From Candidatus Marinacidobacterales bacterium (lineage in GTDB: Bacteria; Acidobacteriota; Vicinamibacteria; Marinacidobacterales; DATDRI01): a stretch of DNA of 64,000 nucleotides. Under the pieces are notes generated by a model, which ran no database searches, was not told where the DNA came from, and saw nothing but the letters and a program-made list of their open reading frames with translations. Below are positions 32,269 to 50,524 of the stretch, piece after piece (position 1 is the first letter of the stretch; every line of letters starts with the position of its first letter). The position numbers and the translations under genes were made by a program. The stretch spans positions 480,001-544,000 of the forward strand of contig OZ245365.1 in NCBI GenBank assembly GCA_965226495.1, in the 5' to 3' direction.

Positions 32269-32419
32269 TTTCTGTGCATTCCCCGCAATTCCCGATAACT
32301 TCCGTGCCGCCGCATAATCCCAAGGTTTCGAGGGCTCGAAAAAGCGTCTCTGATCGGAGAAGCGTCGTTTCGGAATCAGGACATTGATGGGAGAGCACAT
32401 TAACAATATAATAGTCAAT

Positions 32420-32653
32420 ATGAAGACAATAGCCATTACTGTAGACGACGAGACGCTGGCCTTGATCGACGACCTCGGCTCCTCCGCCAAGTTCCGGAGT
32501 CGCTCCGCGCTCGTGCGGGCAGCGATTCGGGAGTACGCCCAGCAGGTGCAGAGGAGCCGCGAGGAGGAGCGAGAGCGGGAGATCATTCGCAAGAACAAAG
32601 ACGCCTTGGACCGGGAATTGAAAGCGTTGATTACAGAACAGGCGCGGAAGTGA
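32420..32653 (+). CDS. Ribbon-helix-helix (CopG-like) antitoxin
   Basis: MKTIAITVD beta-strand, SRSALVRAAIREY; overlaps the toxin start (GTGA). Confidence 0.8.
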   Translation: MKTIAITVDDETLALIDDLGSSAKFRSRSALVRAAIREYAQQVQRSREEEREREIIRKNKDALDRELKALITEQARK

Positions 32654-32979
32654 AACGAGGAGAAATCTATCGTACGAAGGAATCTGTACCCGAGCGGGGC
32701 GGCAAGCCCGGTTTTTACGTGGTGGTATCGCGGGCCTTCATCGCCGCGAACGACGACGTCGGGACGGTTATTTGTGCCCCCGTCTACAGCAACGTCCTGG
32801 GTCTTTCGACCGAGGTCATCGTCGGTCCTGACGAGGGCCTTCCCAAGACGTGTTCGATACGCTGCGACTTTCTCACCTTGATATTCAAATCCAAGCTAAC
32901 GGGTTACGTGTCCAGACTGGCGGGAACTAGACTGGGGGAACTCAATAGAGCGCTGGCGCAGGTACTCGAAATCAACTAA
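32650..32979 (+). CDS. PemK/MazF-family toxin
   Basis: MKRGEIY, VVVSR, VICAPV, EGLPK.CSIRCD, L...L pattern; 109 aa; downstream of an RHH gene. Confidence 0.8.
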   Translation: MKRGEIYRTKESVPERGGKPGFYVVVSRAFIAANDDVGTVICAPVYSNVLGLSTEVIVGPDEGLPKTCSIRCDFLTLIFKSKLTGYVSRLAGTRLGELNRALAQVLEIN

Positions 32980-33124: not shown

Positions 33125-33601
33125 TTATTTGAACAACCCCACCACGAGCACGACCACGCAAGCAATCACGAGTCCCGATCCAATCACTGCCAGCCCTTGA
33201 GTCACGCTGCTGAACGCGAGAGTCTGAGCCAGCACTCCCAGCGTAAAGACCAGGCTCCCCACGATGAAGAGCCGGGCGATGAGCAGCTTCCTCCCGTCAT
33301 CCCAGCCGATCCGGTGCGCGAAGAGGGGAATGATGAGCGCCAAGGTGCCGAGCTCGATGACGTGGGCGTGGAAGCTCACCTCGCGTATGTACTCGAAGGA
33401 GTTAGCGCGGAACGTCTCTATGCTCTCGGAAACGCCGGCTTGGTTACCGCCCGCGGCCTCGAAGAAGGACTGCGCGAAGGCCATGCCCATCGCCACGAGC
33501 GTTTGGTGCTCATCGAAGATTGCGTAGTAGACGCCGAAGATGAGCCCGATGAGCACGAGCAGAAGACCACCCACGATGTAGGTCTTGTTGGCGGATGTCA
33601 T
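33125..33601 (-). CDS. Four-TM membrane protein with HAH motif
   Basis: Start MTSANKTY at 33601 overlaps the upstream stop (ATGA); SFHAHVIELG motif; four hydrophobic helices. Confidence 0.75.
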   Translation of the reverse strand: MTSANKTYIVGGLLLVLIGLIFGVYYAIFDEHQTLVAMGMAFAQSFFEAAGGNQAGVSESIETFRANSFEYIREVSFHAHVIELGTLALIIPLFAHRIGWDDGRKLLIARLFIVGSLVFTLGVLAQTLAFSSVTQGLAVIGSGLVIACVVVLVVGLFK

Positions 33602-34692
33602 GACGTTCCTCCCCGGGCGTCGACGGCACCGGTATGTCGGATGACGCCCAACAGCATGCCCAAGAGCGCGGTGATCACGATGAATCCCGCGAGGTCGGCA
33701 ACGGCTCCGCCGTAAAGGCCCGACCAAAGCTCCGACTGCACCGCCACGGGCAGGAGAAAGCCGCCTACGACTAGCCACCGTGCCCAACGGAGCTTCCACT
33801 TGTCGGACAAGAAGACGAAACGCTGGGCGAATGCCAGGAGGATCGCCATCAGTCCGAACGCGATGAAATGGGCGTGGGTCGCGATGTAGATGGCCTTTTC
33901 GGCCTGGAGCCAATTGTAGTCGTGCACCGCTTGCGTGGCTGCGGGAACGTCATTGGCCATGGCGTGGGTGAGCGAGGCCTGCAACAAGCTCACATCCTTC
34001 TCCGCGTTGTCGTAAAGGCCGGTCGCCGCGTAGTAGGCGCCGTTGAGCAACCCAATCAGAATCAGCACCGCTCCCCATCGAAGCAGAAAACTCTTTGCGG
34101 GCTCGGCTTCATCGTCCTTGGCTACGGCTTCCACCTCGCCCTTACATCGGAAGTGACGGACCGCACCCGCGAATTGGGCGACCACGCCGACGATGAAGAC
34201 CGCGCCGGCGGTGTCGGCCACGATGCTTCCCCAGCCGATGGTCTCGAAGGGAGATTTCCAGAGGCCCAAGTAATAGATGGCGAAGACGCCAACCGGGAGG
34301 ATGAAAGAGGACGCCACCAGAACGATCGCCCATCTTCTTTTCCACGTCGGCCCGATGGCGATATAGGGCTGGACGAGCCCCAGAATCAGGCACAGATACG
34401 CGAGCTGGATCCAGTGCGTGTGGGTGTCCTTCTTGGTGCCCATGTTCTCGAGCATCTTGCCGATTCTCTCCATCGATCCGCCGATGGGCTCGCTGTTGCC
34501 AGCCGCCACAGCTTTTACGGCGTTCAGCATCTCCGCCTCGATGGTCATGCCGCTCTGGTGCAGGTGAAAGATCGCGAAGTATTCCCCGAAGAACATGCCG
34601 ACGATCGCGATCAGGATTCCACCCAAGATGAGGATGCGTGCGGGGGACAGCGGCTCGTTGAGAGTCAGCCTTTCGGATACGCCTCCTTGCAT
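33598..34692 (-). CDS. Eight-TM membrane protein made of two HxH four-helix repeats
   Basis: DTHTHWIQL and ATHAHFIAFG in equivalent positions; internal repeat W..RWA..LV...F.LPV; GAGG RBS before ATG 34692. Confidence 0.8.
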   Translation of the reverse strand: MQGGVSERLTLNEPLSPARILILGGILIAIVGMFFGEYFAIFHLHQSGMTIEAEMLNAVKAVAAGNSEPIGGSMERIGKMLENMGTKKDTHTHWIQLAYLCLILGLVQPYIAIGPTWKRRWAIVLVASSFILPVGVFAIYYLGLWKSPFETIGWGSIVADTAGAVFIVGVVAQFAGAVRHFRCKGEVEAVAKDDEAEPAKSFLLRWGAVLILIGLLNGAYYAATGLYDNAEKDVSLLQASLTHAMANDVPAATQAVHDYNWLQAEKAIYIATHAHFIAFGLMAILLAFAQRFVFLSDKWKLRWARWLVVGGFLLPVAVQSELWSGLYGGAVADLAGFIVITALLGMLLGVIRHTGAVDARGGTS

Positions 34693-34753
34693 GGACACCT
34701 CCTACGCTGGGGCTTCTATATCATCTTTTGTGCGACCGATCATGACTACCTGG

Positions 34754-35342: not shown

Positions 35343-35738
35343 ATGGAAAAGACTCAGGTCAACCCGTGGAAGTGGCAGGACCAATACGGTTTCTCTCAGT
35401 GTTGGAAAGTAGACGGTGCCAAGTCACTCATCGTCGTGTCCGGGCAATCGAGCATGTCGGCGGACGGCGCGGTTCTACACCCTGGGGATTTCAAGGCCCA
35501 GGCACGGCTGACGTTCGAGAACATGCACACCGTTTTGGAACACTCCGGTGCGTCGCTCGAGGATGTCGTGAAGCTGGGCGCGTACTTCGTCGGCATCGAC
35601 ATGCAGAAGTTAATGGATTACGGCGCCGTGCAAGCGGAGTTCTTCAAGGGCAAGATGCCGGCGCAGACCTTGGTGGGCGTGGCACAGCTGGCTCTGCCCG
35701 ACATGATGCTCGAGGTAGAGGCATTCGCCGTCGTCTAA
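35343..35738 (+). CDS. RidA/YjgF family protein
   Basis: VSGQ, Q..LTFEN...VL...GASLEDVVK, PAQTLVGVAQLA..DMMLEVEA; AAGGAG RBS. Confidence 0.9.
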   Translation: MEKTQVNPWKWQDQYGFSQCWKVDGAKSLIVVSGQSSMSADGAVLHPGDFKAQARLTFENMHTVLEHSGASLEDVVKLGAYFVGIDMQKLMDYGAVQAEFFKGKMPAQTLVGVAQLALPDMMLEVEAFAVV

Positions 35739-35852: not shown

Positions 35853-36385
35853 ATGGAAGACATTTACAACTACGTGAACGGCCGCCTAGATCCGGGCGTT
35901 ACCTCGAGAATGTCGAGCCGGCAACGGGACAGGTGTACTCGAGGATTCCCGATTCCGACAAGGAAGATTTGAACGAGGCCATCGCCGCGGCACAAGCTTT
36001 TCCCGTTTGGAGCGAGACGCCGTCGATGGAGCGCAGCAGGGTGATGCTCCACATCGCGTAGCGGATCGAGGCGGTGAGCGAAGAGTTGGTCCGCGCGGAG
36101 TCCATCGATACGGGCAAGCCGATCTCTCTGGCCCGCGACGTCGACGTTCCCAGAGCGTCATCCAATCTCCGGTTTTTCGCTGGTGCGGCGACGCAGTTTT
36201 TCAGCGAGTCGCATGCGATGGAAGGCGGAGCCATCAACTACACGTTGCGCTAACCCCACGGGGTGGTGGCGTGCATTTCGCCCTGGAACCTGCCCCTCTA
36301 TCTGCTGACATGGAAGGTGGCGCCGGCTCTCGCCGCGGGTAACTGCGTGATTGCCAAGCCGTCCGAGCTAACACCCATGACGGCT
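35853..36385 (+). pseudogene. Aldehyde dehydrogenase remnant (2-aminomuconic semialdehyde dehydrogenase-like)
   Basis: [50 protein letters not shown]. Frameshift near 35890, TAG at 36059, TAA at 36251, truncated after about 36385. Confidence 0.85.
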
Positions 36386-36672
36386 GTCGAGAATCTTTTC
36401 TTCAGGTACAGGCGCACGCTGGGCGACAGCCTTCGTGCGTGCGGCTACGAATCCCAGAAGCGCGAGGCGATGATCGGGTCGCAACGTATTGAACCGGATG
36501 GCTGAGCTGGGCAAGCCCTGAGTCCCAAGCGATCGTCGAGGAGTAAATTGAACCGCCGAAAGTGAAGACCTGCGCCCGCACCGATTCATGCAACAACGCC
36601 CCTCGGAGGCCCCACACGTGATAAAAGAGAGGCCGAGTCGCGCGTCTCTATTTCATGGCAGGAGACACACAC

Positions 36673-37692
36673 ATGGGCGAGGAAAAAGGGAAGCTAACCC
36701 TCGAGGAGTTCGTGACCAGCCTCTACCATGGGGCGCGGGCGGACAATACCTTCAAGTTCCTCTACGGACAGCCGGAAGAAAAGCTTGACGCCTTTTTTCA
36801 AAAGCTTCTCCGGCAAGTGGTGGGAGCCGTCGATAGCGGTGACAGCGGGGCCTTAGGGGACTTTCTGCAGCAATCTCAGGTCGGCGGTTACACGTTTCCA
36901 CTCGACAAGCCTCCCTTCTGGGCTCCCAAGGTGCCGCAGGCCCCGGTCCCACTCGCCCGACTACGCAAGCCACTCTCGGAGGCGAGAGTCGCCTTGTTCT
37001 CGAGCGCGGCGGCGCGTCTCCCCGAGCAACCGACATTTCTGCCCGACGGGTTGGATCTGCCGGCCGCGACTCGGGACCCGATGAAATCGTTCGAACGATT
37101 TCCGAGCCTGCGCGAGATTCCGGCCGGTACCAATCCCGCACGCCTGGTCTTCGAGCACATCGCCTACGATTTGAACGCGGCGCAGCAAGACCCCAACGTC
37201 GTCTTTCCGCTGGATCGCTTCCGTACGCTTGCCGAGCAAGGTGTCATCAAGGTGGCGCCCAAGGCGTACTCCTACAAAGGGCTTTCCAACGTGCAGCACC
37301 TGGTCGAGACCACGGGGCCGGAATGGGCGGAGAAGGTGCGAGCGGACGGCGCGGATGCGGTGCTGTTGGTGCCCGGCTGACCCGTTTGTCACCTGTCCGT
37401 GGGACAGCTCGCGCGCGCCATCGAGACTAGTGGCATACCTACCGTGACGTTGTACATCGAAGCCTGGGAACCGATGGCCCGCTTGGTCCGTCCGCCTCGG
37501 GTGGTCACGACGCGATTCTTGCAAGGTCGGATCGTTGGCCCGCCGAATCGTAAGAACACCCAGCTGCGCGTTCTCGGGGACGCGTTGGAGTTCCTCAAGA
37601 ACGCCACCATGGACAACTGGTTGCTCCCGCTTCCTTTTACCTGGTCCGAAGCGCTTCGGGAGGGGACGCCAAGAAACGCCGGTCTAATTTAG
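36673..37692 (+). CDS. GrdB/PrdB-like (glycine/sarcosine/betaine/proline reductase selenoprotein B family) selenoprotein; Sec at TGA 37378-37380
   Basis: Continuous frame ...DPNVVFPLDR...DAVLLVPG-U-PVCHLSVGQLARAIETSGIPTV...PPR; UxxC motif; hairpin right after the UGA; GGAGA RBS before ATG 36673. Confidence 0.85.
37381..37410 (+). promoter_or_regulatory. Putative bacterial SECIS element
   Basis: CTGTCC-GTG-GGACAG stem-loop at 37393-37407, 12 nt after the UGA, with G in the apical loop. Confidence 0.65.
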
Positions 37693-37714
37693 GCACTAGG
37701 GAGGAGTAAGAACG

Positions 37715-38776
37715 ATGGGAAGATCATCGGTCATTTTGGAGAGTCTGCCACTGCCTATGCTCACCGATTTCGCTCAGAAAGCCGATGAGCACGGCTACGA
37801 CACGGTTTGGAAGCCGGAGATCATTTTCTCCGATACATTTGTTCCTTCGACTGCGTTTGCGTTGAAGACGAAACGTGTCCATATCGGCTCGTGCATTGCG
37901 GGCATTTGGGGGCGGAGTCCGGTGGTCACCGCCTTGTCGGCGAGCGCGCTCGCCGAGCTATCGGGCAACCGGCTAATCCTTGGGCTCGGAACGCAGGCGC
38001 GTTCGTACGTCGAAGGTTGGCACGGTTTGTCTTATGACAGACCACTCACTCGTGCTCGAGAGCTCATCACTGTCATTAAGAAGATTCTCTCCGGCGAAGT
38101 CGTATCGTTCGAAGGAAAGACGATGAGCCTCCAGCATTTTCAGCTTGCCCTAACGGGGCCGCCTCCCAAAGTACCCATCTACTTGGCGGCGATTGGGCCC
38201 AAGATGACGCAGCTCGCTGGCGAGATCGCGGACGGGGTGATCGGCTACTTTCAGCCCATCAACTACTTCCGTGACACCTTCCTCAAAAATCTCGAGATCG
38301 GGGCCAAGAAGGCCGGGAGGACGCTCGACGACATAGACATCGTCGTCGGACACCCGGCTTTGGTCTCGGACGATCCGAAGGCGGTGGAGTGGATTAAGCC
38401 GCACGTTGTCATGTTCGCCACCGCCGGCGGCTCCTCGCCGACTTACGCAGGTATGGTGAAGTCAGCCGGTTTCGAGAAAAACCTGGAGGGAATGTTAGCG
38501 GGCATCGCCAACGGGAGCATGGATGAAGCGGCGAGCCACGTGAGCGACGAGATGGTCGAAGCGATGACGCTTTGTGGCACCGCGCAACACGTCGCCGACC
38601 GCATGGACGATTACCATCAGGCGGGCGTGAAGATGACGCTGATGAATCCCGTTCCACCGAAGGCATACTTTCCGCTCTTCGCGGGGCATTTTCCGGAGAC
38701 GATGGAGTTCCCCCAATCGGACGTCGAGGCCTTCGTTCAGAACGTGGACGATATCGTGACCAAGGTGCCCCTGTAA
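37715..38776 (+). CDS. LLM-class (luciferase-like) flavin- or F420-dependent oxidoreductase
   Basis: GYDTVW.PE, RSPVVTA, LSGNRLILGLG, IYLAAIGPKMTQLAGEIADG. Confidence 0.88.
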   Translation: MGRSSVILESLPLPMLTDFAQKADEHGYDTVWKPEIIFSDTFVPSTAFALKTKRVHIGSCIAGIWGRSPVVTALSASALAELSGNRLILGLGTQARSYVEGWHGLSYDRPLTRARELITVIKKILSGEVVSFEGKTMSLQHFQLALTGPPPKVPIYLAAIGPKMTQLAGEIADGVIGYFQPINYFRDTFLKNLEIGAKKAGRTLDDIDIVVGHPALVSDDPKAVEWIKPHVVMFATAGGSSPTYAGMVKSAGFEKNLEGMLAGIANGSMDEAASHVSDEMVEAMTLCGTAQHVADRMDDYHQAGVKMTLMNPVPPKAYFPLFAGHFPETMEFPQSDVEAFVQNVDDIVTKVPL

Positions 38777-46319: not shown

Positions 46320-47129
46320 ATGGCACAGCAAGCGCTCCATGAGCTCTTAAGAAACGCGAAGGTCTACGACCTCGGTCAGCCCTATTGGCCCGGAATGCCG
46401 GTCCATCCCTTCGATCCGCCGTTCCAGTTCTACCTCTATCGGTACCATGAGTACGTCGCGAAGCTTTTCGAAGAGATCGAGCCGGGGTTCGCTGATGCTA
46501 TCAGCCTGATCATTACTTCCATGCACTCCGGAACGCACTTCGACGTACCGGTGCACATGTCGCAGGATCTGAAGGTCCTCGGCATTGATCCCACGCCCTA
46601 CCAGCGCGACACCGGTTTCGTCGATCTACCCGAGCCGCTCCACAGCATGGAAAAAGTTCCTCCGCTCATTCTCAAGGCGGTACTGCTGGACGTGCCCGCT
46701 TACAAAGAGGTGGACATTCTGCCCGAACGCTACGCCATCACTCCCGAGGATCTGGAGGGCGCGGCCAAAGCGGCGAACGTCCCGATCCAAGAGGGCGATT
46801 GCGTTTTGATCCGGACCGGGTATTCGCGGTTTTTCGAGACCGACGGGGAGAAGTACCTCTACAAGTGGGCGGGGCTGAACGACGCCGCGGCGCAATGGGT
46901 GGCGGACAAGAAGCCGCGCCTGGTAGGTACGGACAATCTTTCGATTGGAGTCCCCGCACCATTTGCCGCGCACCGAATCTTGATGGTCGAAAACGGCATC
47001 TATGTGATGAAGAGCCTGAAGCTCGAGGAGATGTCGAAAGACGCTCGTTTCGACTCGACGGTGATCGTGCTGCCCTTGAAGCTCAAGGGTGGCGAGGCGT
47101 CGCTGGTGCGACCGATAGCCCTGGCCTGA
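46320..47129 (+). CDS. Cyclase family protein (kynurenine formamidase-like metal hydrolase)
   Basis: HSGTHFDVPVH, GDCVLIRTG, VGTDN, LPLKLKGG.ASLVRPIA. Confidence 0.88.
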   Translation: MAQQALHELLRNAKVYDLGQPYWPGMPVHPFDPPFQFYLYRYHEYVAKLFEEIEPGFADAISLIITSMHSGTHFDVPVHMSQDLKVLGIDPTPYQRDTGFVDLPEPLHSMEKVPPLILKAVLLDVPAYKEVDILPERYAITPEDLEGAAKAANVPIQEGDCVLIRTGYSRFFETDGEKYLYKWAGLNDAAAQWVADKKPRLVGTDNLSIGVPAPFAAHRILMVENGIYVMKSLKLEEMSKDARFDSTVIVLPLKLKGGEASLVRPIALA

Positions 47130-47160
47130 CAGCCTGACAGCCTGACAGGTTGACAGCCTG
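47125..47160 (+). repeat. CCTGACAG tandem repeat
   Basis: cctgacag x3, gttgacag, cctg; begins at the cyclase stop codon. Confidence 0.75.
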
Positions 47161-47288
47161 CCCCGCGATCGGGCGTCGCACCGTCTTTATTATTATAATG
47201 GGTTGGGTTGGGGGCGGCGTTACGCTCCTCCCACGGCTAAATAGCTACCCTGTCAAATACTACTGGGACTTTCTGAGAGGCAGCCAAA

Positions 47289-48485
47289 ATGAACACCGGA
47301 GTATCGCCGGATCAAATCTGGATAAGTGATCTGAACAAGGACGAGGAGATTCAGTCGCCTTTCGACCGCACGACCCCCGTCCGCTTTTACGACACCACGT
47401 TGCGGGACGGCGAGCAGACGGTGGGTGTGGTCTTCACGCCGGATGAAAAGGTCGAGATCGCCCGAAAGCTCTCAGACCTCAAGGTCGGCCGTATCGAAGC
47501 GGGGTTCCCGAGGGTCTCCGAGGCGGACACGGAAGCGGTGAAGCGCATCGCGGAGGCTGGACTGGAATCGGAGATCTATGGATTTTCACGGGCGGTGATC
47601 CAAGATCTGGATGCCCTCATTGAGCTCGGGCTGAAGGGGACCGTCATCGAGATCTCCACCAGTGACATCAAGATGAAGGCGTATGGTTTCACGCGCGAAA
47701 AGGTTATCCAACGCGCGACAGACGCCATCAAGCACGCCCGTGCACACGACATGAAGGTTACCTTTTTTCCGGTAGACAGCACGCGGAGCGATCTTGCGTT
47801 CTTGCGCGACGTCTACGCGGCCGCGATCGACGCCGGAGCAGAAGAAGTCGCCATTGTTGACACCATCGGGGCTTGCTCCCCGGAAGCAGTGGAAACGCTA
47901 GTACGCGTAGTGCGGAGTTGGGTGGGGCCGGACATTCCGGTCCACTTTCATGGGCACGACGACTTCGGCCTGGCGACGGCATCCGCCATTGCCGCGGTGA
48001 GGGGTGGTGCTCGCTGGATACAAGGCACTATTAACGGAATGGGCGAGCGCGCCGGCAATGCCGACATCGTGGAAGTCGCCTTGGCACTCCAATGTCTTTA
48101 CAACGTTCCCGTCGAGCTGGACCTGAAGAAAGCTCGGGAAGTCTCGCAAGTCGTGCAGAAGGCCGGAGGTTATCGTGTCGATAGTTGGAAGCCGGCGGTC
48201 GGCGAGAATCTCTTTGTGCGTGAAAGCGGGGCGGTGGCCAGCCAGTTCCATATCCCCGAAGCCATCGAGCCATACTCGTCCGACATCGTGTCCGCAGATC
48301 GGAAGATCGTACTGGGCAAGAAGAGCGGCGTCGCCAGCGTCCAGCTGAAGGTGAAGGAGCTGGGACTCGATGTCCCCGAGGATAAAATCGCCCCGATTTT
48401 GGCCGAGGTCAAGAGCCAAGGAACCCAAAAGGGTCGACTGATTACGGACGACGAGTTTAGAAAGGTAGTCCAAGAGCTGTCATGA
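47289..48485 (+). CDS. DRE-TIM metallolyase (homocitrate/isopropylmalate synthase-like) without regulatory domain
   Basis: DTTLRDGEQ, IEAGFP, HFHGHDDFGLA, NGMGERAGN, LGKKSG. Confidence 0.85.
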   Translation: MNTGVSPDQIWISDLNKDEEIQSPFDRTTPVRFYDTTLRDGEQTVGVVFTPDEKVEIARKLSDLKVGRIEAGFPRVSEADTEAVKRIAEAGLESEIYGFSRAVIQDLDALIELGLKGTVIEISTSDIKMKAYGFTREKVIQRATDAIKHARAHDMKVTFFPVDSTRSDLAFLRDVYAAAIDAGAEEVAIVDTIGACSPEAVETLVRVVRSWVGPDIPVHFHGHDDFGLATASAIAAVRGGARWIQGTINGMGERAGNADIVEVALALQCLYNVPVELDLKKAREVSQVVQKAGGYRVDSWKPAVGENLFVRESGAVASQFHIPEAIEPYSSDIVSADRKIVLGKKSGVASVQLKVKELGLDVPEDKIAPILAEVKSQGTQKGRLITDDEFRKVVQELS

Positions 48486-49549
48486 TGAGCGTGAAAGTAG
48501 GTATCATTTTCAAGTCGTACGAGCCGATGTCCGCCATCCAGGCGTATGCCCGGCAAACCGAGGAGTCGAACCTGAGTGGCGGATTTTGGATCGCGGAGGC
48601 CTACCACTGGTTTCGTAAGTACGGTCACGAGTCGCGCGGGTGTATGGCCACCTTGGCGGCAGCGGTTACCGCGACCAAGAAGATTCCCATCGGCCTCGGT
48701 ATCACCTCCCCATACGTCCGGCATCCGACCGCCCAGGCGTCCGAGGCGGTGGCTTTGGACGAGCTTTCGGGTGGACGGTTCACCATGGGTCTCGGTGCCG
48801 GTAAAGTCGGGATCGTTTATTTGGAGGTCGACCTCAAGAAGCAGTCGCCGGTCAAGGTTCATCGAGAGTCGATCGAGATCTTCCGTGGCATCGTGAAGGG
48901 CGAGAAGTTCACCTACAAAGGAGATCTCTATCAGGCCGATGTTCCGGCCATGGATCGGGCCGGCCGGGGGCTTCGGACGTACATCCCGGTTTACATCGGA
49001 GCGACCGGACCGTACTTGCAGCAGCTTGCTGGCAAGATCGCGGACGGCCTGCTCTTGCCCGGTTTGACCAATCCCGGATTCGTCAGCTACGCCAAAGACA
49101 ACCTCGCCAAGGGTTTCGAAAAAGCGGGCCGCAAAGCGGATCCGGACTATCCGGTGGGCGGCGTGATCCTGGCGGCTTGCTCGCGGGATGGCGCCAAGGC
49201 TCGTGATGCGGCGCGCAGCTACACCGGCACCTACATCATCAACAAGCTTCGGAATATCCAGAACGATGTCATTCTGAGCAGCTCTGGACTGCCGGATGAG
49301 ACCTGGAAACCGTTCCGAGCCGCCATCGAAGCCGGCACTGAGGACAACGTGACCTCGTTGGTGAGCGACGACGTGATGCGAAAGTTTACGGTGATCGCCG
49401 GGACACCCGACGACTGTCTGGAACTCTTGCAGCAACTCGTTGATGCGGGGCTCAATTTGCCGCTCATGGAAGTGGTGGGCGCTAGCCAAGAAGACAACTT
49501 GGAGACCATTCGTCTCTTAGGCGAAGAAGTGGTCCCCAAGCTCAAATAG
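48482..49549 (+). CDS. LLM-class flavin- or F420-dependent oxidoreductase
   Basis: FWIAE, SPYVRHP, LDELSGGRF.MGLG, YIGATGP, AGKIADG; overlaps the upstream gene. Confidence 0.88.
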   Translation: MMSVKVGIIFKSYEPMSAIQAYARQTEESNLSGGFWIAEAYHWFRKYGHESRGCMATLAAAVTATKKIPIGLGITSPYVRHPTAQASEAVALDELSGGRFTMGLGAGKVGIVYLEVDLKKQSPVKVHRESIEIFRGIVKGEKFTYKGDLYQADVPAMDRAGRGLRTYIPVYIGATGPYLQQLAGKIADGLLLPGLTNPGFVSYAKDNLAKGFEKAGRKADPDYPVGGVILAACSRDGAKARDAARSYTGTYIINKLRNIQNDVILSSSGLPDETWKPFRAAIEAGTEDNVTSLVSDDVMRKFTVIAGTPDDCLELLQQLVDAGLNLPLMEVVGASQEDNLETIRLLGEEVVPKLK

Positions 49550-49564
49550 GGGAGTGGACGTCAG

Positions 49565-50524
49565 ATGAAGTTAGCGACATTCAAGAAGAAGGGCGACGAC
49601 AAGCCGACCACCGGTGCTTTTCTGGAAGATCTCTATATCGATCTGCCCGCGTTGACAGACGGTGAGATCCCCTCGGCAATGTTGGATTTTCTCTGGGCAG
49701 GAGACGCGGCGATGCGTAAGGCGCGTTCGGCACTCGAGGGGCTGGGGGGAGAGCTCAAGAAGGGGAGTCCGGATGCGCTCACGACCTCGAGCGGCAAGCG
49801 GTACGCGTACCGTCCCGACGAGATCGAGCTCATGGCTCCGGTTCCGCGCCCCGGCAAGATCATCCACACCGCGTGTAATTTCCCCGCGCACCTCAAAGAG
49901 CTGACGACCTGGAGTGAGCCGGAATGGAAGTCTCACGATTGGAAGACCTTTAGCTTCGAGCACCCCACGGGTTTCCTGCAGGCTCCCTCCTCGGTCTCGG
50001 CCTCGGGAGCCAAAGTGCCGGTGCCACATTTCACGAAGCAGCTCGACTATGAAGTCGAAGTGGCTACCATCATCGGTAAGGAAGCGTTCCGGGTGAGTGT
50101 CGAAGACGCCCTCGACTACGTTGCCGGCTTCGCGGTTTTCAACGATCTGTCGGCGCGCGATATCCAGGCGCGCGAGCACTCTAACCGCGTGATTTATCTT
50201 GGCAAGAGCTTCAACGGATCGTGCCCGCTGGGTCCGCACCTCGTGACCAAGGACGAGATTTCTGATCCCGTGAACCTCAGCATGAAGTTATTCGTGAACG
50301 GCGAAGTGCGTCAGGATTCGAACACTTCGCAGATGCAGTACAAGTTTGCGGAGATGGTCTCCTGGTGGTCGAACACGACTCTCGAGCCTGGAGACGTGAT
50401 CACGAGCGGGAGCCCTCCGGGAGTTGCGGCCGGAATGGAGAGCCCACGTTGGCTGCAGCCTGGGGACGTCGTCGAGGGTGTGGTCGAGGGACTCGGCACG
50501 CTGACGAGCCATATCGTCAAGTAG
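49565..50524 (+). CDS. Fumarylacetoacetate hydrolase family protein
   Basis: LDYEVE, NDLSARD.Q, GKSF, PLGP, LEPGDVITSGSPPGV. Confidence 0.9.
   Translation: MKLATFKKKGDDKPTTGAFLEDLYIDLPALTDGEIPSAMLDFLWAGDAAMRKARSALEGLGGELKKGSPDALTTSSGKRYAYRPDEIELMAPVPRPGKIIHTACNFPAHLKELTTWSEPEWKSHDWKTFSFEHPTGFLQAPSSVSASGAKVPVPHFTKQLDYEVEVATIIGKEAFRVSVEDALDYVAGFAVFNDLSARDIQAREHSNRVIYLGKSFNGSCPLGPHLVTKDEISDPVNLSMKLFVNGEVRQDSNTSQMQYKFAEMVSWWSNTTLEPGDVITSGSPPGVAAGMESPRWLQPGDVVEGVVEGLGTLTSHIVK

Follow-up and report, generated by a model that had tools for sequence, protein, structure and literature searches.

The candidate selenoprotein gene and the reading of its UGA

We analyzed a 64,000-nucleotide stretch of a Candidatus Marinacidobacterales genome (contig OZ245365.1, positions 480,001 to 544,000 of the forward strand), hereafter the window, and focused on a PrdB-like gene whose frame is interrupted by a TGA codon. 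Window positions 36673-37692 (+) form a single frame of 339 amino acids when the TGA at 37378-37380 is read as selenocysteine (Sec). After the TGA, 103 further codons follow in frame up to a TAG at 37690-37692. The local peptide at the read-through site is L-V-P-G-U236-P-V-C239-H (numbering from ATG 36673), and U236 and C239 are the sole Sec and Cys residues of the protein. ATG 36673 is the likely start codon, judging from an AGGAG 8 nt upstream and from a homolog (P0002) that begins at the equivalent place; ATG 36655 is an alternative. A preliminary description, made from the letters of the window alone, had joined two open reading frames (ORFs) across TGA 37378 as PG-U-PVCH and had placed a gene for a luciferase-like monooxygenase (LLM), with a GGAGGA ribosome-binding site, 22 nt past the stop. 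All of these coordinates check out. The PrdB model TIGR04483 spans both halves, and GGAGGA lies at 37700-37705, ahead of an ATG at 37715. The features of the locus are as follows.

36660-36664 (+): Shine-Dalgarno-like AGGAG, 8 nt 5' of ATG 36673 (sequence)
36673-37692 (+): predicted PrdB-like selenoprotein gene, 339 amino acids with UGA as Sec (frame, TIGR04483 match, AlphaFold2 model with pLDDT 94.7 and pTM 0.91)
36700-36891 (+): N-terminal four-helix domain (N-domain), residues ~10-73, marker of a subfamily (alignments and model; no Pfam match; fold matches with Z of 4.5 at most)
36934-37644 (+): PrdB/GrdB-like alpha/beta core, residues 88-324 (TIGR04483 116 bits, cut-off 300; PF07355 35 bits, cut-off 22)
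37378-37380 (+): in-frame UGA, predicted Sec236 (TGA in 79 of 80 related loci; Cys in full-length homologs)
37387-37389 (+): Cys239, predicted resolving residue of UxxC (only Cys of the protein; conserved as C in all 54 distinct SECIS regions)
37393-37407 (+): predicted bacterial Sec insertion sequence (SECIS) hairpin with a 6-bp stem and a GUG loop, the latter 18 nt past the UGA (position, covariation, bacterial SECIS rules)
37700-37705 (+): GGAGGA ribosome-binding site of the LLM gene (sequence)
37715-38776 (+): Mer-like LLM-class oxidoreductase, probably F420-dependent (PF00296 212 bits; best PDB match Mer, 3e-39)
35343-35738 (+): RidA/Rid-family gene, given for context (found upstream in each of the three genomes of the genus, with variable decayed DNA between it and the selenoprotein gene)

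As checks on the Sec reading, the preliminary description had proposed a search for the Sec machinery, an alignment of homologs at the UGA and a SECIS prediction. The host genome (G000; 6.34 Mb in one contig, 94.8% complete) encodes selA (570 bits), selB (378 bits) and selD (333 bits), each over its cut-off, as well as a tRNA-Sec (70.9 bits, Rfam RF01852), so that all four components are present. The selD gene itself carries one in-frame TGA. Aragorn calls two tRNA-SeC genes in G000 (C1 173953-174050 and 176351-176447), of which only the first reaches the RF01852 threshold.

For the alignment we used the best 80 of 267 related metagenome loci. The codon aligned to the UGA is TGA in 79 of these 80 loci, 78 directly and one (L107) once an upstream frameshift is allowed; the last locus (L110) stops short of the column. 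TAA or TAG was never seen at this column among the 80 loci. Cys is aligned to the UGA in the full-length homologs P0003, P0007-P0010 and P0243 and in three Acidobacteriota loci.

The hairpin CTGTCC-GTG-GGACAG, noted earlier 12 nt downstream of the TGA, was found where it had been placed, with stem strands at 37393-37398 and 37402-37407, the loop at 37399-37401, and a loop distance of 18 nt from the UGA. The cited passages of a recent review give the rules for bacterial SECIS (bSECIS) elements as a loop of 3-9 nt, a stem of 4-16 bp, a G in the first two loop positions, a distance of 16-37 nt from the UGA and a minimum free energy of at most -7.5 (PMC13188914). The 3-nt GUG loop, the 6 bp and the 18 nt satisfy these rules, and the predicted energy is -7.4 kcal/mol when 23 nt are folded and -11.6 when 40 nt are folded. 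The folding energy of the hairpin alone was no better than that of shuffled sequences (z = 0.92, 0.06 and -1.16 for three cuts), and hairpin stability was therefore dropped as evidence for a SECIS; support comes from position and covariation. Over 55 distinct sequences, 97.6% of the stem cells were paired compared to 86.8% after shuffling (0 of 500 shuffles as high), keeping in mind that kinship among sequences can inflate covariation scores, and slid controls gave 20-54%. The outer pair is G-C in 48 sequences, A-U in 4, C-G in 2 and G-U in 1, and the fourth pair is A-U in 28, U-A in 25 and U-G in 2. These changes alter the protein in step: the outer pair encodes V/H, M/H or, in the window gene, L/Q, and the fourth pair S versus T. 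As for the loop, its codon specifies Val in all 54 Sec forms versus 13 of 38 Cys-form proteins, the latter gathered by motif search. This very short SECIS, covarying even at an amino-acid cost, is a clean example for SECIS models.

The alternative is that the UGA is a genuine stop, in a split gene or a pseudogene, followed by a hairpin that arose by chance. The unremarkable folding energy fits this explanation, as do a frameshift near codon 47 of the orthologue in the same-genus genome G002 and the decayed state of the upstream DNA. A real stop is hard to reconcile with a TGA that is conserved across the loci and never replaced by TAA or TAG, with compensatory stem pairs that alter encoded residues, with Cys in full-length homologs and with a full Sec machinery, and we consider it extremely improbable. 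Because the Sec machinery, the TGA conservation, the SECIS covariation and the bSECIS rules all fit, it is very likely that UGA 37378 is read as Sec, and the prediction of a hidden selenoprotein that carries UxxC and belongs to the PrdB/GrdB superfamily is well supported at the sequence level. As to the G002 frameshift (L035 6001-6150), it may be a sequencing error or a sign of decay.

A rule modelled on the window site (6-bp stem 12 nt after the TGA, GT loop) matches 31 of the 169,872 TGAs of G000, although it was framed after the site had been seen. A less strict scan of the genome for UxxC or CxxU with a hairpin returned 451 of 2,322 sites and was rejected as a selenoproteome list, being too noisy. 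Separately, three sites in G000 (C1 2426820, 3549060 and 4273437, all +) are candidates for peroxiredoxin/thioredoxin (Prx/Trx)-like UxxC selenoproteins, with an in-frame TGA followed by P-F-C, long open flanks and a hairpin.

The PrdB-like core and its N-terminal domain

TIGR04483 covers residues 88-324 across the TGA with 116.2 bits (1.5e-33), short of its equivalog cut-off of 300, and also matches each half separately (2.5e-16 and 1.6e-9). The gathering threshold of PF07355 is passed (35.2 bits versus 22), and the gene is the one PF07355 gene of G000. All GrdB/F/H-type NCBIfam models stay below their cut-offs (TIGR01918, 37.7 versus 65.45 bits; TIGR01917, 30.5 versus 602; NF040795, 52.8 versus 775; NF040794, 38.2 versus 800), the second-best NCBIfam match being betaine reductase GrdH at 52.8 bits versus 775. 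The UxxCxxC motif described for GrdB in the cited passages of PMC13188914 is replaced here by U-P-V-C-H-L-S, with C239 as the only Cys.

One may ask whether the protein is a true subunit of a Stickland-type D-proline or glycine reductase with its partners elsewhere in the genome. PrdB is its best family model, and public annotations of the subfamily read 'D-proline reductase (dithiol) PrdB'. On the other side stand the scores just given, which are far under the GrdB/F/H cut-offs and at 116 versus 300 bits for PrdB, and the partner searches in a genome that is 94.8% complete. PF09338 (the GrdE/PrdA pyruvoyl proprotein) was found in 0 of 45 Acidobacteriota genomes with a PrdB-like match, including G000, and PF04723 (GrdA) in 0 of 5 genomes searched; neither model matched in any control genome either. 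The earlier statement that Stickland partners are absent from the window thus holds, and extends genome-wide within the limits of searches that had no positive control. Overall, we regard a Stickland subunit as highly improbable.

The extra N-terminal helical segment pointed out previously is present, and it is a domain that marks a subfamily. Its conserved residues are F13, S16, R22, D24, F27, K28, F29, L30, F41, D54, Q69 and Y73, and no Pfam model matches it. Searching 1.84 billion representatives, we obtained 748 matches, with the N-domain in 30 of the best 150; a profile search gave 1,399 matches, with the N-domain in all of the best 120. Of these 120, 119 have lengths of 225-269 residues, which fits gene calling that ended at the UGA. 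The subfamily comprises at least 149 distinct proteins. By pattern, 138 of the 149 terminate at the Sec site; visual inspection added two and showed that one of those counted (P0099) is a fragment. Full-length Cys forms number six. Anaerolineae, KSB3 and Acidobacteriota are among the source labels, and many members are labeled 'D-proline reductase PrdB' in the databases.

A tree built by a quick method from just the core domain puts 38 of the 40 N-domain rows into a single group (support 88), leaving out P0008 and P0052; the window protein falls in a sub-clade with P0003, P0004, P0011 and loci that are 43-53% identical (support 99). The N-domain form is rare in Acidobacteriota: of 60 close relatives, two carry it, and both belong to the same genus. 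A scan of the phylum found a full-coverage match in 1 of 400 genomes and some PrdB-like match in 35, and a single-protein scan of genome contigs found just two same-genus loci.

The AlphaFold2 model of the read-through product (pLDDT 94.7, pTM 0.91) predicts four helices at the N-terminus, then a linker rich in proline and an alpha/beta core in which Sec opens a helix after a strand. A PDB sequence search returned no match at E 1, and Foldseek, run with the whole model and with the N-domain, had no match at E 0.001. The best VIA Z score was 8.7 for the whole model, with LacI-type/periplasmic-binding and Rossmann-like alpha/beta folds of which none stands out, and 4.5 for the N-domain. These blank structure searches do not demonstrate a new fold. 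Apart from the subfamily, we observed PrdB-like Cys domains fused behind AMP-binding (acyl-CoA ligase-like) or HTH_3 domains (P0047, P0117, P0084 and P0134); the AMP-binding ligase fusions may be assembly read-throughs.

The LLM neighbor and the genes around relatives

The protein encoded directly downstream matches PF00296 with 212 bits, and its best PDB match is Mer (3e-39). Its best NCBIfam matches are F420 LLM families, all below cut-off (best 188 versus 345 bits). G000 carries the F420 synthesis genes cofD and cofE and 16 LLM genes. From these matches, the neighbor is a Mer-like LLM that is probably F420-dependent.

The selenoprotein and LLM genes are co-oriented and 14-22 nt apart in G000, in the same-genus genomes G001 and G002 and in a 91%-identical contig (L067). 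The block 36600-38775 is kept in G001, G002 and, within contig reach, L067 at 88-89% DNA identity, and both flanks vary. Judged by this arrangement, the two genes likely form an operon in this genus. At this similarity the pair is restricted to the genus (2 of 60 relatives; 2 of 300 genomes of the class). An LLM lies directly downstream in none of the 56 more distant loci in which 300 nt or more follow the stop, and any LLM lies nearby in only two of the other 79 loci, L139 (opposite strand, ~1 kb upstream) and L085 (4.3 kb downstream), counts that leave out the homologs P0002 (82%) and P0003 (52%) and the LLM homologs P0277 and P0278 (64-65%). No LLM was found within 1.5 kb at 39 other Acidobacteriota PrdB-like loci. 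Across the genomes and loci compared, the Se-LLM module is local to the genus and not general.

A promoter/terminator scan gave nothing above chance, with no terminator-like site in the 22-nt gap. Co-transcription was not shown by the sole RNA run (X20), which held small fragments (share 0.05). One 256-nt contig of this run joins the end of ridA (35745) to the LLM leader (37682), skipping 1,936 nt that include the selenoprotein gene; the LLM keeps its ribosome-binding site. With a depth of 2.1 and 26 nt on the short side, this junction is possibly a chimera and a weak hint.

The preliminary description had proposed a two-gene module of selenium plus flavin or F420. The pairing in G001, G002 and L067, the Mer-like LLM and the F420-making genome bear out its local part; as a conserved module it is not supported, with an LLM directly downstream in 0 of 56 distant loci. 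Its further suggestion, that the LLM powers a reductive C-N cleavage, is backed by nothing beyond adjacency. In a broader form, the selenoprotein and an F420-dependent LLM would act together in the genus on one substrate, in consecutive steps or with the LLM as the electron source; for instance, C-N cleavage could be followed by imine or carbonyl reduction, with RidA encoded upstream. The conserved spacing and orientation, the confinement of both genes to the genus among the genomes searched, the capacity to make F420 and the presence of RidA upstream in all three genomes are consistent with such a joint function. It is called into question by the distant loci, by the 16 LLM genes of the genome, by syntenic flanking genes (M19 and M20 peptidases) that are likewise kept in the genus, and by the RNA-run contig that joins ridA to the LLM without the selenoprotein gene (a single contig, possibly a chimera). 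Moreover, according to the cited parts of PMC8498797, luciferase-like hydride transferases (LLHTs) transfer hydride directly between F420 and organic substrates, and F420-dependent disulfide reduction uses the flavin enzyme DFTR. Because LLHTs hand hydride straight to organic substrates, the LLM would be a poor candidate for re-reducing a selenenylsulfide. We consider joint action on one substrate unlikely.

We also scanned neighbor ORFs of the relatives, 210 with Pfam (cluster representatives within 3 kb and some extra members) and 28 with NCBIfam. Recurring neighbors include glutaredoxin (Grx)/mycoredoxin-like proteins, class-I pyridine nucleotide-disulfide oxidoreductases (one over the MerA cut-off), Trx/Prx and DsbD with DUF3179, MerR regulators, a MetE catalytic-domain protein and AhpD-like proteins, the last labeled by eye from the sequence and without a family match. 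A TrsS/Tes-like radical S-adenosylmethionine (rSAM) gene and a DVU_1556/ArsM-like methyltransferase, both below cut-off, also recur. When the loci are grouped at 85% identity, 10 of the 19 informative groups have a thiol-redox gene no more than 4 kb away (13 of 29 at 95%, 7 of 13 at 75%), compared to 2.7% of random 9-kb windows of G000 under the same BLAST rule. This enrichment is overstated, since the 2.7% was measured in another organism and the count is inflated by kinship among the loci and by mobile islands that they may share. The rSAM gene and the methyltransferase each occur in 6 of 19 groups, in both sub-clades. Some linkages are tight: a Grx-like gene ends 3-5 nt 5' of the selenoprotein gene in L118, L122 and L123, a disulfide reductase begins 45 nt 3' in L144, and a Prx gene begins 39 nt 3' in L138, L140 and L143.

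As an observation in its own right, the TrsS/Tes-like rSAM gene, usually with the methyltransferase, stands beside N-domain selenoproteins in L073, L105, L106, L118, L119, L121, L124 and L127, and such loci often also carry NrtS-like, PEMT-like, Grx or MetE-like genes. This set is a candidate for a system in its own right.

Candidate chemistry and related systems

The reading that we favor is that the protein is a stand-alone selenol/thiol oxidoreductase and that the LLM is a genus-level operon partner, not an obligatory electron donor; on the sequence data we hold this as an even call. In the proposed mechanism, SelB and tRNA-Sec would decode UGA 37378, and the Sec236 selenolate would attack an electrophilic small molecule, which could be an oxidized sulfur center, an alkylating compound or a metal(loid)-organic one. 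Cys239 would then resolve the adduct, giving a selenenylsulfide, and glutaredoxin or thioredoxin together with an NAD(P)H-dependent class-I disulfide reductase would regenerate the active enzyme. The N-domain may stand in for the PrdA/GrdE partner, through substrate binding or oligomer contacts. We infer every catalytic step of this scheme. In its favor are the evidence for Sec, U236 and C239 as the sole Sec and Cys residues, the single PF07355 gene of the genome, the failure to find a pyruvoyl proprotein or GrdA, and the thiol-redox genes near relatives. Grx, Trx-like and class-I disulfide reductase genes are present elsewhere in G000.

Several points weigh against a stand-alone oxidoreductase. 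No such redox partner flanks the selenoprotein gene in G000, which also has no close TrsS-like gene (best 119 bits), and 9 of the 19 groups have no redox neighbor. The neighbor labels were chosen after the loci were seen, the largest 85% group merges 41 loci and is scored positive if any one of them is, and the baseline has the limits given above. The selenoprotein-LLM block is intact in the genus while its flanks vary, as a real operon would be, and the searches that came up empty for PF09338 and PF04723 lacked a positive control.

The protein could instead be a partner-free C-X lyase or reductase, performing the selenoether chemistry of GrdB and PrdB on an activated onium or organometal(loid) substrate without a pyruvoyl Schiff base. 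The selenolate would attack carbon to form a selenoether, Cys would release it, and the N-domain would bind the substrate (a quaternary nitrogen, a sulfonium, or methyl-arsenic or methyl-mercury). Betaine reductase, for its part, does not rely on a Schiff base. The window protein retains the PrdB core and U-P-x-C, GrdH is the second-best NCBIfam match (although far under its cut-off), and ArsM/DVU_1556-like methyltransferase, TrsS-like rSAM, MetE-like and Mer genes recur beside relatives. Selenoether chemistry has been described for both glycine and proline reductase in the cited part of PMC10298544. On the other side, no GrdA-type acceptor was found (GrdC was not searched for), no conserved transporter or substrate-specific gene stands among the neighbors, and the redox neighbors fit plain thiol chemistry equally well. 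We judge it unlikely. Less probable still is its most specific form, in which the N-domain subfamily would be partner-free C-Se enzymes that cleave onium or organometal(loid) carbon bonds, are recharged by Grx and disulfide reductase and, in this genus, pass their product to the F420 LLM. Its substrates may be of the betaine, sulfonium, methyl-arsenic or methyl-mercury type. If true, it would be the first reaction for the long-misnamed environmental 'PrdB' proteins. Taken together, the neighborhood narrows the candidate chemistry to thiol-redox and methyl/organometal(loid) reactions.

Elsewhere in the window, an aldehyde dehydrogenase-like remnant (35853-36400, +; recognized by eye in translation) with in-frame stops and a frame change lies between ridA and the selenoprotein gene, and G001 and G002 carry other decayed fragments in the same slot. 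The adjoining 36401-36600 is repeat-like, with a second copy that is 84% identical at C1 1911839-1912037, and contig depth in the DNA runs is very high around 36477-36587. Two overlapping multi-pass membrane proteins at 33128-34698 (-) have no Pfam match and conserved His (H-x-H-W/F), and are kept in both same-genus genomes. A small antitoxin-like gene followed by a PemK/MazF-family gene occupies 32384-32979 (+), and an operon of cyclase-like, IPMS/homocitrate-synthase-like, second Mer-like LLM and FAA-hydrolase genes occupies 46320-50524 (+).

Orphan environmental 'PrdB' selenoproteins have been in print since 2005. For the Sargasso Sea, the cited passages count 42 genes of the UxxC selenoprotein family 'proline reductase PrdB' (PMC1088965), and for the GOS survey 235 PrdB sequences (pfam07355) from 38 samples (PMC2398784). 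Such proteins are among the commonest selenoproteins of ocean surveys. The literature cited here gives no reaction for them in the parts considered, and those of a 2026 review give only clostridial functions for the family (PMC13188914). Databases cut these proteins at the UGA and name them D-proline reductase. Our literature searches, mostly judged from listings, turned up no paper on the N-domain subfamily or on a link to an LLM. What is new here is the N-domain subfamily and its neighborhood: this locus marks out a sizeable subfamily whose members are nearly all Sec forms, with an N-domain that no family model covers and a confident structure model.

Among known systems, D-proline reductase PrdB (TIGR04483) shares UxxC and a core that aligns to model positions 13-234 of 238, whereas the window protein scores 116 versus 300 bits, has ~85 extra N-terminal residues, and has no prd operon and no PrdA proprotein that we could find. 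GrdB, GrdF and GrdH (PF07355, TIGR01917/01918, NF040794/5) share the C-terminal catalytic part (PF07355 positions 268-345), but the window protein has UxxC, lacks the GrdB N-terminal half and stays below cut-off in every NCBIfam model, and no GrdA or GrdE was found. The LLM neighbor resembles Mer-like F420-dependent luciferase-like hydride transferases, with methylene-H4MPT reductases as its best PDB matches and with F420 family matches, but is under every family cut-off. The closest counterpart of the selenoprotein is the family of the Sargasso and GOS surveys, PrdB-like UxxC proteins from environmental bacteria other than clostridia, whose genes have a bSECIS following the UGA. The cited passages of those surveys (PMC1088965, PMC2398784) mention no N-terminal domain, neighbors or tested function, and their supplements may hold N-domain members; the surveys class the family among thiol-dependent redox selenoproteins. 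The window protein, with a pfam07355 domain and UxxC in an environmental bacterium, falls within this family.

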